From IMG/VR virus record IMGVR_UViG_3300027708_000084, positions 1 through 57,373 of that record: DNA of 57,373 nucleotides; one strand, 5' to 3'. The notes under the pieces were generated by a model. The model was given only the letters and a program-made list of their open reading frames with translations. It was not told the origin of the DNA and made no database searches. Shown piece by piece: positions 19,236-21,620 of the stretch (its first letter is position 1; each line of letters starts with the position of its first letter). This DNA comes from a virus. Its lineage: Duplodnaviria; Caudoviricetes. The translations under genes and the position numbers were made by a program.

Positions 19236-20102
19236 ATGAAAATCGCAGTTTGCTCAGACTTGCACTTAGAGTTTGATACATTAACACTAAAAAATACTGA
19301 AAACGCACAAGTTTTAATCTTGGGCGGAGATATTTGCGTGGCTCGTGATTTACTGGACAAAGATAGCGTAGAAATATTTGACAGATTTGATCGTAGCGGT
19401 GGACTACACGAATTCTTCCAAATGTGCTGCCGTAACTTTAGTCACGTTGTGTATGTTGCTGGTAATCACGAGCACTACAACGGCGACTATGCCAAAACTT
19501 TTACAATTCTGCGTGATAGACTAGCGTACTTGCCCAACCTACACATCTTAGACAAACAAACATTTGTATTAGATGACGTTACCTTTATTGGCGGCACGCT
19601 GTGGACTGACATGAATAACGAAGACAGCATGACCTTACGTCATATCAAAGGCATGATGAATGATTTTCGTTGTGTCAATAATAGTAATAGTATAGTCAAT
19701 TTCAAGACGTTTGATGAAAATGGTAATGCTGAATTCAAAACACGTGTTGCTAAATTTTTACCAGAAGATGCTGTTGCAGACCACAAACTAATGATGAGTT
19801 ATGTTGCTGAAGTTATTTCAGGCAAATTTGACAAAAAGTTTGTGGTTGTTGGGCATCATGCTCCTAGTAAGGCATCAACTCATCCTCGCTATAAGTATGA
19901 AGAATTAATGAATGGTGCTTATAGCAGCGATCTAGATGACTTTATAATCGATCATCCACAAATCAAATTGTGGACTCATGGTCACACTCATGAAGACTTT
20001 GACTATCAAGTTGGCTCAACCAGAGTAGTTTGCAATCCACGTGGTTACGCAAACTATGAAGATCGTGCTGACAAGTTTCAGTTAAAGTTTGTAGAAGTAT
20101 AA
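19236..20102 (+). CDS. metallophosphoesterase (calcineurin-like)
   Basis: SDLH, GD, GNHE, HH.P, HGHTH motifs. Confidence 0.9.
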   Translation: MKIAVCSDLHLEFDTLTLKNTENAQVLILGGDICVARDLLDKDSVEIFDRFDRSGGLHEFFQMCCRNFSHVVYVAGNHEHYNGDYAKTFTILRDRLAYLPNLHILDKQTFVLDDVTFIGGTLWTDMNNEDSMTLRHIKGMMNDFRCVNNSNSIVNFKTFDENGNAEFKTRVAKFLPEDAVADHKLMMSYVAEVISGKFDKKFVVVGHHAPSKASTHPRYKYEELMNGAYSSDLDDFIIDHPQIKLWTHGHTHEDFDYQVGSTRVVCNPRGYANYEDRADKFQLKFVEV

Positions 20103-20107
20103 TTTAT

Positions 20108-20435
20108 TGTTGTATGAAGCAACGAGAACCGTGTCTTGGACGGGGGTGCGAATCCCCCCACCTCCACCATAAGGATTTTTATGTTTGATGAATGGCATTG
20201 GGTTTATCTATGGGGCATATTAATTTGGATAAATTATATGTTCTGTCTCATAAAAAGTCTTTATGATGGGGGTGACTAGTTTCGACAGGGCAAGTAGTAG
20301 CAGAGTGGACAACACATCAGAGCAGATGTTAAAACTAAACAAAAGTAAACGCAAACGACTCACAGTTCGCATTAGCAGCTTAAACACTGCTTAGGGTTTT
20401 TGGTAGGTTTCCTCGTAACAGAATAACCTACCGCT
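20108..20435 (+). ncRNA. ssrA: circularly permuted two-piece tmRNA
   Basis: Acceptor piece ends ...CACCTCCACCA at 20169; coding piece starts GGGGGTGA at 20268 (G3-U70 Ala identity); tag ANDSQFALAA* at 20351-20383; outer ends approximate. Confidence 0.88.
20181..20279 (+). CDS. 32-aa hydrophobic peptide encoded in the tmRNA intervening segment
   Basis: TAAGGA-N5-ATG; MFDEWHWVYLWGILIWINYMFCLIKSLYDGGD. Confidence 0.5.
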   Translation: MFDEWHWVYLWGILIWINYMFCLIKSLYDGGD

Positions 20436-20455
20436 TTACTAACGGATAAATAATT

Positions 20456-21064
20456 ATGGCAAATAAAAACACAAGCCTTTTTGACCCTAAACTGCTAGAT
20501 CTTGAAGGTGGTACAAATCACTTTTGCAAATCAGCTGCAAAATTGTATGAATTTTACCTAAGTGGTGACATTGGTTCACCTGAAGAATATATTGAATGGT
20601 TTGATGTTATTCGTAATGCCACATCCAGTGATACTATTCGCATCTACATTAACAGTGCAGGCGGAGATCTTTATACAACTCTACAATTTTTGCGTGTAAT
20701 GGGCGAAACTCAAGCCGAAATAATTACCAGTGTAGAAGGCGCTTGCATGAGTGCTGCTACTATGATATTTTTAAGCGGACACGTTCATGAAGTAACACCG
20801 CACTCACTATTTATGTTTCACAACTACAGTGCAGGAACATTTGGCAAAGGCGGAGAAATGTATGACCAAGTACAATTTGAACGCCGTTGGTCAGAAAACT
20901 TTATGGTAGAAGTGTACAAAGATTTTCTAACTGAAGACGAAATCAAATCTATGTTGAACAACAAAGACATTTGGTTAAGTTCTGAGGAAGTAATAAGCCG
21001 ACTAGAAGTAATCTACAAAAAACTAGAAGCTAAAAGAAATGATGTTGTGGCGTCTGTGGACTAA
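20456..21064 (+). CDS. clpP: ClpP-like protease
   Basis: IYINS.GG, G.CMSAAT.I (Ser), FMFH (His), DIWL. Confidence 0.85.
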   Translation: MANKNTSLFDPKLLDLEGGTNHFCKSAAKLYEFYLSGDIGSPEEYIEWFDVIRNATSSDTIRIYINSAGGDLYTTLQFLRVMGETQAEIITSVEGACMSAATMIFLSGHVHEVTPHSLFMFHNYSAGTFGKGGEMYDQVQFERRWSENFMVEVYKDFLTEDEIKSMLNNKDIWLSSEEVISRLEVIYKKLEAKRNDVVASVD

Positions 21065-21546: not shown

Positions 21547-21620
21547 GCGGGTAAGCCTAAGGTAGGACGCCAGCCTTCCAAGCTGCGCTGAGTGGAGTTC
21601 GATTCTCCCTACCCGCTCCA
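21547..21620 (+). tRNA. tRNA-Gly(UCC)
   Basis: Loop CTTCCAA; GCGGGTA/TACCCGC acceptor; TCCA. Confidence 0.85.

Follow-up and report, generated by a model that had tools for sequence, protein, structure and literature searches.

A conserved small-protein gene in the intervening segment of a permuted phage tmRNA gene, probably translated from the tmRNA precursor

Transfer-messenger RNA (tmRNA) is the textbook case of one molecule serving as tRNA and as mRNA. We describe here a permuted tmRNA gene of a large uncultivated freshwater phage, carried on the 57-kb IMG/VR viral contig IMGVR_UViG_3300027708_000084 (57,373 nucleotides [nt], ~54% complete; this whole stretch is called the window below), in which the 98-nt intervening segment (IVS) between the two tmRNA pieces holds an open reading frame (ORF) of 32 codons. 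We consider it likely that this ORF is a real cargo gene translated from the phage pre-tmRNA. Judging from the sequence comparisons below, one transcript probably acts both as a messenger and as the precursor of a ribosome-rescue RNA, and the pre-tmRNA would carry a second, conventional message in a stretch hitherto regarded as a disposable spacer. The elements of the locus on which this reading depends are as follows.

20108..20169, plus strand: acceptor (tRNA-like 3') piece of the tmRNA, with the encoded CCA at 20167-20169 (RF04321 model positions 1-62; ARAGORN)
20170..20267, plus strand: IVS of 98 nt, the insert between the CCA and the 5' GGGGGTG (Rfam alignment)
20268..20438, plus strand: coding piece of the tmRNA, starting with GGGGGTG (ARAGORN; RF01850)
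20351-20383, plus strand: tag reading frame ANDSQFALAA followed by TAA (ARAGORN)
20181..20279, plus strand: ORF of 32 codons plus TAG, peptide MFDEWHWVYLWGILIWINYMFCLIKSLYDGGD (ORF list and sequence)
20168..20183, plus strand: predicted 5' arm of the closing helix, which holds AAGGA and the ATG (20181-20183) (RNAfold minimum-energy and centroid structures)
20249..20265, plus strand: predicted 3' arm of the closing helix (20249-20251 and 20253-20265), which encodes codons 23-29 (RNAfold)

The tmRNA gene itself was identified by two programs. ARAGORN called a permuted tmRNA at 20074-20474 with the tag ANDSQFALAA, a frame with a hydrophobic end and a stop codon, and Rfam placed RF04321 (tmRNA_permuted) at 20108-20383 with 119.7 bits (cut-off 47) and RF01850 with 112.2 bits (cut-off 84), the latter match ending at 20438; the two-piece gene spans 20108-20438. 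The pieces stand in permuted order, with CACCTCC plus ACCA at 20160-20169 pairing with GGGGGTG at 20268-20274 in a 7-bp acceptor stem that has a G-U at the third pair (G3 opposite T). A rule based on acceptor-stem pairing extracted the identical 98-nt IVS.

The first-pass annotation, made from the sequence of the window, had described a segment with complementary ends in which a Shine-Dalgarno (SD) sequence and a start codon, buried in the closing stem, open a tryptophan (Trp)-rich ORF of 32 codons that ends inside the tmRNA. Each of these features was recovered. The SD sequence AAGGA occupies 20171-20175 and is separated by a 5-nt spacer from the ATG at 20181, and the TAG at 20277-20279 lies 10-12 nt into the 5' end of the tmRNA, so that the last three codons and the stop fall within the coding piece. 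RNAfold predicts that the ends of the segment form a closing helix of 16 pairs, interrupted by one bulge, that stacks on the acceptor stem (z -3.7 and -2.7), and both the SD and the AUG are located in its 5' arm. The peptide contains 4 Trp residues and 10 aromatic residues among its 32, and AlphaFold2, run on the family alignment described below, gave one helix over residues 5-30 with a predicted local distance difference test score (pLDDT) of 86.5. The product would be a Trp-rich, single-helix peptide of ~30 residues that is probably membrane associated.

Relatives of the peptide were found by protein and by pattern searches. Searched with phmmer, a set of 1.84 billion representative proteins yielded seven matches (E values of 1.6e-6 to 2.1e-4) with 56-62% identity over the whole peptide. 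All seven end in ...K[SG][LF][FY]DG.D and then continue into variable tails that are translated tmRNA, and one reads on into a tag ending ...ALAA. Patterns back-translated from the alignment of these matches located 34 loci on viral and 13 on metagenome contigs; together with the window and the locus L221, these gave 28 distinct DNA versions, flanks included. No relative was found among 185,579 prokaryote species (one genome each), a tblastn search of 50,697 GenBank phage records with a family peptide gave no match, and a homologous-protein search with a 47-residue form starting at a TTG gave no candidate. The window peptide is 53-94% identical to 25 other family members, resembles them over its full length and shares the residues that are invariant in the family alignment (A3), namely, M1, W5, Y9, G12, I13, N18, and K25. 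The hydrophobic core of the family interchanges only A, I, L, V, and F in the same alignment.

The DNA versions carry a clear coding signature. Among 27 versions, the ORF frame contained 0 stop codons at a ratio of nonsynonymous to synonymous polymorphism (pN/pS) of 0.36, compared with 79 stop codons and a ratio of 0.68 in the +1 frame and 39 stop codons and a ratio of 0.99 in the +2 frame. Differences at codon positions 1, 2, and 3 numbered 1422, 827, and 2075, and pN/pS was 0.36-0.39 over 276 pairs, which are phylogenetically non-independent and in which codons 23-29 are additionally constrained as a helix arm. With these caveats on the pairs and the helix arm, the comparison indicates that the 32-codon ORF is a genuine conserved small-protein gene under purifying selection, and it is this selection that implies translation of the ORF.

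The position of the gene in the 28 versions links it to tmRNA. In 20 of them it lies in the IVS, as in the window, directly after ..TCCACCA and with the start signal [AT]AAGGA[CT]T..-ATG; the tmRNAs concerned have at least three different acceptor stems and many different tags, some with a length of 27-33 residues. None of these 20 versions has a stop codon in the IVS, and in all of them the frame crosses the boundary GAT|GGG and ends 12-96 nt into the tmRNA. The other eight versions lie upstream of the tmRNA and have their own stop codon (e.g., ...KSLFDNVKE). In six of the eight, the gene is located in the 5' leader of the tmRNA, with the acceptor piece of the tmRNA, delimited by Rfam and sequence, starting 5 nt past the stop codon (L394/L395/L416, L420, L397, L399/L417, L405-L407/L421, and L408/L422). 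At L409 the peptide gene is followed by a truncated 5' fragment of tmRNA, an inserted ORF, and then a full tmRNA 1.1 kb on, and at L402/L418 the same inserted ORF lies between the peptide gene and a tmRNA ~440 nt on. The inserted ORF starts MRIDEITAYHGTDA.. (L409:1594-2710; L418, on the same contig as L402), and that of L409 looks like a mobile insertion into the start of the tmRNA.

A permuted tmRNA was present at every version with enough flanking sequence. As judged from these loci, the peptide family is confined to permuted tmRNA genes of phages and their surroundings, where it occupies the IVS, the 5' leader, or the upstream region. Between the six leader copies and the tmRNA there are only 5 nt, with no room for a separate promoter, and the IVS copies lie inside the tmRNA gene; the peptide would therefore have to be read from the primary tmRNA transcript. 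The dual-purpose precursor envisaged in the first-pass annotation, coding and tmRNA at once, is borne out by the 28 versions with their stop-free frame, its placing of the stop beyond the boundary between IVS and tmRNA extends to all 20 IVS-borne versions, and the comparison of related IVSs that it had proposed as a check yields a conserved frame under selection. As a separate observation, ARAGORN predicted unusually long tags of 26-33 residues at L377, L380, L385, L389, L393, and L403, whereas the usual tag is of the 10-residue ANDxxFALAA type, and near-identical IVSs were found with either long or usual tags.

The ORF of the window is one of many kinds of IVS content. We collected tmRNA loci regardless of what their IVS contained, through the ClpP-like protease and phosphoesterase genes that neighbor the tmRNA gene and through two patterns from the tmRNA body. 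By the acceptor-stem pairing rule, which admitted at least one doubtful cluster (L291/L320/L357), 226 of the 376 loci hold a permuted tmRNA; these locus counts are upper bounds, some contigs having been sampled more than once. The loci contain 166 distinct IVSs of 11-284 nt, which fall into 97 blastn clusters. We scored an ORF as segment filling if it had an ATG or GTG within the first 25 nt and at least 20 codons, covered 75% or more of the IVS, and stopped no later than 15 nt beyond the end of the IVS. Such ORFs were found in 13 of the 97 clusters on the sense strand and in 0 of 97 on the antisense strand, and among first members of at least 60 nt, 12 of 78 passed the filter compared with 4.97 ± 2.07 in 300 shuffles (maximum, 13). 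L013 and L261 were dropped as candidate genes, their ORFs being short, without an SD, and not conserved; L235, whose ORF extends further into the tmRNA than the filter allowed, and the L182 family were added, giving a curated set of 13 clusters (35 of the 226 loci). AAGGA stands at the 5' end of the IVS in 8 of 13 ORF clusters but in only 1 of the 84 others (Fisher P = 7.6e-8).

Several of the encoded proteins are unrelated to the window peptide, and the main families are as follows (dN/dS, ratio of nonsynonymous to synonymous substitution rates).

L182:243-434 (minus strand), L209:1406-1585 (minus strand), and L255:7826-8020 (plus strand): IVS genes for PF09791 (Oxidored-like) proteins (Pfam, 36-45 bits, cut-off 24), dN/dS 0.06-0.20
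L187:2967-3224 (minus strand): 284-nt IVS encoding an 86-residue Cys-rich protein after AAGGA-N5-ATG, matching PF03692 (CxxCxxCC) with 29.4 bits (cut-off 23)
L216, L218, L265, L278, L313, L316, and L360: family A IVS proteins, dN/dS 0.06-0.22
L191, L238, L352, and L223: family B IVS proteins, dN/dS 0.10-0.19

The proteins of families A and B have 50-52 residues, belong to no known family, and stop inside the IVS; in these two families and the PF09791 family, close pairs show 5-6 synonymous and 0 nonsynonymous changes. The Oxidored-like IVS genes at L182, L209, and L255 have no start codon in the IVS; their frame is open to an ATG 56 nt upstream in the acceptor piece (GTATGAAGC), and the protein may begin within tmRNA sequence. 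Descent of the window peptide from this family was considered and rejected, since the interior alignment scored 19 compared with 16.7 ± 2.6 for shuffles, 20% of which matched it; despite the look-alike stretches IWINY/VWISY ... KSLYD, the two families share only the ends that form the closing helix. Other IVSs carry RNA genes or no ORF at all. A tRNA-Arg(CCG) gene is nested in the IVS at L311:2738-2811 (minus strand) and L284:171-244 (minus strand), and the IVS of L025 is related to these two, though ARAGORN did not call a tRNA in it. Conserved cassettes without an ORF include L281:1274-1361 plus 24 other loci, the largest group with 9 distinct versions, as well as the L206, L033, L315, and L334 clusters; some of these cassettes hold hairpins that resemble a T arm. 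An E-value-based Rfam scan of 12 loci with common RNA-like cassettes, in which overlapping tRNA-clan matches are unreported, found no known family within the IVS.

Further IVS ORFs with an SD were noted individually: a Trp-rich ORF of 56 residues at L399:1671-1841 (plus strand), a locus whose leader also holds the peptide gene; hydrophobic peptides of 23-24 residues in L174 and at L425:2337-2420; and an ORF of 38 residues in L433 (minus strand). L425 and L433 are contigs binned into bacterial metagenome-assembled genomes (MAGs).

The same cassette can occupy different tmRNA genes. The IVS of L221 is 99% identical to that of the window, with one change (M20I), at a locus whose tmRNA pieces are only 87.1% and 84.3% identical. 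According to these sequence comparisons, what the IVS of this phage tmRNA clade carries is hypervariable and exchanged horizontally; the slot holds genes for small proteins, a tRNA gene, and RNA-like cassettes. In DNA contigs of two lake metagenomes (X1 and X2), 86-94 nt between ~20169 and 20264 are skipped or replaced, with the break at the IVS, which fits several IVS variants coexisting in one population.

The closing helix is shared far beyond the peptide family. Within the family, it is kept in 87.2% of 368 cells, compared with 49-65% when the partner is slid, and across the tmRNA clade at least 9 of 10 positions are paired in 76 of 91 IVS clusters, compared with 21% when arms are swapped. 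ORF-less IVSs carry the same closing helix, so it probably serves tmRNA processing first. Covariation of the helix in the peptide family was not above that of shuffles (90 of 500 reach the same level), and RNA pairing therefore does not explain the conservation of the ORF.

We propose the following route of expression. The peptide would be translated from the primary tmRNA transcript, with ribosomes most likely loading onto AAGGA-N5-AUG during transcription, while the 3' arm of the closing helix, which lies 70-85 nt further on, is still to be made. Such loading would be the simplest route because the 3' arm is transcribed later and the nascent RNA is unstructured over the start; the transcript 20108-20248, from which the 3' arm is absent, is predicted to have no stable structure over the SD or the AUG (z -0.42). 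A translating ribosome would cross the ribonuclease P (RNase P) site, open the 5' strand of the acceptor stem, and terminate 10-12 nt into the tmRNA; the acceptor stem could not form during its passage, and RNase P would then be without a substrate. After termination, the RNA would refold, the closing helix and the acceptor stem would form, and cleavage of the precursor would release both tmRNA pieces. A frame already cut by RNase P would be left without a stop. On each molecule, translation and maturation would therefore compete, probably in sequence rather than as a stable switch. Our best guess is that the product is a small membrane protein co-expressed, through transcription of the tmRNA gene, with a module of tmRNA and the ClpP-like protease encoded next to it.

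Several points weigh against translation of a functional membrane peptide. Shuffling of the window IVS with dinucleotides preserved and TAAGGA held fixed produced an SD-spaced start and a segment-filling ORF in 1240 of 20000 cases (6.2%); judged from its own sequence, the window's ORF is weak evidence for a gene, and it exceeds chance solely through comparison. That comparison draws on sequences that are all from uncultivated viruses and, as stated above, on related pairs and on codons that double as a helix arm. The Kyte-Doolittle peak of 1.49 over 19 residues describes a borderline membrane span, and functional searches with the peptide gave no match in Pfam or PHROGs, 0 hits in a PDB profile search, and no usable match in the ESM Atlas. 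Twenty-one sequencing runs were listed, of which 2 were RNA; among the contigs of X4 and X8 (RNA) and of X1 and X2 (DNA), none covers 20188-20259, which is evidence neither way on expression. In the folded precursor, the predicted 16-pair helix encloses the SD and AUG and would hinder initiation if ribosomes did not load co-transcriptionally. Removal of the IVS to give two base-paired RNAs is presumed by homology with bacterial two-piece tmRNAs. Lastly, L076 and L279, whose tmRNA pieces are 98.4% and 93.0% identical to those of the window, carry an unrelated, ORF-less IVS of 78 nt. The first-pass annotation had named a lack of ORFs or SDs in homologous IVSs, along with a lack of ribosome footprints, as refuting its reading. 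The closest tmRNA relatives do lack the ORF, but the test was ill-posed, since the IVS is a mobile cassette and this mobility accounts for their lack of the ORF.

That the ORF is not a gene, whether because an AT-rich spacer is open by chance or because a conserved RNA element happens to lack stops, seems to us barely credible. Equivalent ORFs do arise in 6.2% of shuffles of the window IVS, the 12 filling ORFs among 78 IVSs are to be read against 4.97 ± 2.07 in shuffles and a best shuffle of 13, and the window IVS, with predicted interior hairpins in addition to the closing helix, resembles a structured RNA. A chance frame or an RNA element does not account, however, for 0 stops in the ORF frame of 27 versions against 79 and 39 in the others, for a pN/pS of 0.36 against 0.68 and 0.99 with most variation at third positions, or for the copies outside the IVS, which keep the frame and carry their own stop codon, and the helix shows no covariation above that of shuffles. 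It is also quite improbable that the ORF is a cis-acting leader, in which ribosome occupancy of a Trp-rich frame would tune tmRNA maturation and the peptide itself would have no role; occupancy would hold the closing helix or the acceptor stem open, and maturation would follow translational status. In its favor, every copy of the ORF belongs to the tmRNA transcript and takes one of two positions there, either of which would place termination at a tmRNA piece or shortly ahead of it, Trp codons 5, 7, and 11 are invariant or nearly so, and the phage encodes its own tRNA-Trp (ARAGORN). Yet conservation spans the whole peptide (G12, I13, N18, K25, and the conservative core) and not just the Trp codons, and other IVSs encode unrelated proteins, including Pfam domains, which fits cargo and not a dedicated sensor.

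An earlier model, a self-limiting switch or feedback, accepts the peptide and makes its fate depend on processing: the peptide would come only from the unprocessed precursor, and ribosomes on the freed IVS would run to an end that lacks a stop and be rescued by the newly released tmRNA, their peptide being tagged for degradation, such that peptide output would report on, or be limited by, tmRNA maturation. All 20 IVS-borne versions are stop-free in the IVS, with stops 12-96 nt past it in non-conserved, tmRNA-encoded tails, and an internal stop is achievable, as is evident from other IVS ORF families, which finish within the IVS no later than the TGA of ..TTATGAT; the ClpP-like protease gene directly after the tmRNA and the closing helix over the SD and AUG also suit this model. 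We nevertheless regard it as unlikely. Since each of the eight leader and upstream versions carries a stop of its own (..NVKE and others), a non-stop outcome is neither conserved in the family nor essential to the peptide, and the frame may be fixed simply by codons 25-29 doubling as a helix arm. Doubtful, too, is a wider proposal in which bifunctional tmRNA units, the IVS or leader as a general exchanged slot, and a peptide fate coupled to maturation through the post-RNase P stop are taken together. There, the unprocessed precursor would yield free peptide and the processed IVS a non-stop message, whose product would be tagged by the tmRNA just released and passed to the adjacent ClpP-like protease; if true, it would give the phage's trans-translation module a built-in substrate and timer. 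We favor the cargo gene translated from the pre-tmRNA over these readings.

Such a cargo gene has partial parallels in known systems. Dual-function RNAs of the SgrS/SgrT and RNAIII/delta-haemolysin type combine a non-coding role with a short ORF whose peptide is often membrane active. The phage locus likewise unites a non-coding role and a small peptide ORF on one transcript but differs from them in that its precursor keeps the coding part in one segment and the functional RNA in others, to be cut apart, and in that the stop codon of the ORF lies inside the functional RNA. In type I toxin mRNAs of the hok type, a fold-back of the 3' end onto the 5' end hides the ribosome binding site. Shared features are a small hydrophobic, in our case predicted, helical peptide, pairing of the SD and AUG with the 3' end of the coding region, and RNA processing that would change translatability. 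No sign of a cis-encoded antisense RNA was seen in the window, as distinct from the hok type: a promoter scan, which is a weak test, found no antisense promoter-like site on the minus strand across 20100-20400, the only minus-strand site being at 20571-20542.

Two-piece tmRNAs of Alphaproteobacteria, some Betaproteobacteria, cyanobacteria, and aquatic phages (RF04321 and RF01850) have the same order of acceptor piece with CCA, IVS, and coding piece; the difference here is a conserved protein-coding gene in the intervening sequence. In the part of the Melnitz paper drawn on here, 53 of 133 unique phage tmRNA structures are two-piece forms (PMC9004378). The consulted portion of a 2025 tmRNA database paper lists a tRNA-Ala gene, described there as unique, and one repetitive element as the contents of permuted intervening sequences and in that portion mentions no ORFs in them; it gives endonuclease ORFs solely for intron-form tmRNA genes, in 36 of 883 (PMC11915505). 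Homing-endonuclease ORFs in group I introns of tmRNA, tRNA, and rRNA genes are likewise protein genes nested in a removed stretch and mobile between related host genes. In the phage locus, however, there is no intron: at Rfam gathering thresholds the window matched no intron family, group I included, and the segment lies between permuted ends, outside the T-loop. Its removal is presumably by tRNA-end processing, not splicing, and the cargo is a protein of 30-90 residues without a match to a nuclease family. A full-text literature search, which did not extend to supplements or to one key older paper, brought up no description of a protein gene within the intervening sequence of a permuted tmRNA. 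Nested genes and dual-function transcripts are thus known but, within the literature searched, have not yet been described for tmRNA.

If the IVS ORFs are translated, the IVS of a permuted RNA would be a hiding place for small genes missed by gene callers and RNA annotators alike, and phage tmRNA genes would offer a natural system in which ribosomes compete with RNase P and 3' processing. A tmRNA-linked peptide, here near a ClpP-like gene, would give a handle on why phages carry tmRNA, and a swappable IVS with a conserved closing helix would be a ready design for expressing a stable RNA and a cargo together.

The surroundings of the tmRNA gene include the following features.

19236..20102, plus strand: metallophosphoesterase gene directly 5' of the tmRNA (Pfam PF00149; phrog_1649)
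20098..20103, plus strand: TATAAT, a -10-like box 4 nt 5' of the acceptor piece, a sequence-only lead
20456..21064, plus strand: ClpP-like protease gene directly 3' of the tmRNA (Pfam PF00574, E = 1.6e-11; phrog_1827, "ATP-dependent protease," E = 7.9e-63)

TATAAT, TAAAAT, and TATAGT boxes likewise precede the acceptor piece at related loci; a simple sigma-70 scan called no promoter at the TATAAT box of the window (20098..20103). The phosphoesterase matched proteins of jumbo phages only, at <37% identity. The tmRNA and the adjacent ClpP-like gene suggest a phage module for tagging plus degradation. Among loci found through the ClpP-like gene (L002-L075), those that bear a tmRNA have the ClpP-like gene at the same position, and of the 155 loci retrieved by way of the ClpP-like and phosphoesterase genes, 29 had a permuted tmRNA called by ARAGORN, the window's own included. 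A blastn search of GenBank phages with the tmRNA region gave no match. A 17-nt tmRNA motif occurred in 20 stretches of the genome collection, 4 of them with this tmRNA type, on MAG or bin contigs of mixed taxa that gave no host signal. The contig further encodes a DNA polymerase, a DnaB-like helicase, a ribonucleotide reductase, a ligase, Hsp20, and 17-18 tRNA genes. Directly after the tRNA-Glu gene, a weak extra tRNA lies at 21547-21617 of the window, with an Rfam score of 30.8 bits (cut-off 29) and no call by ARAGORN.

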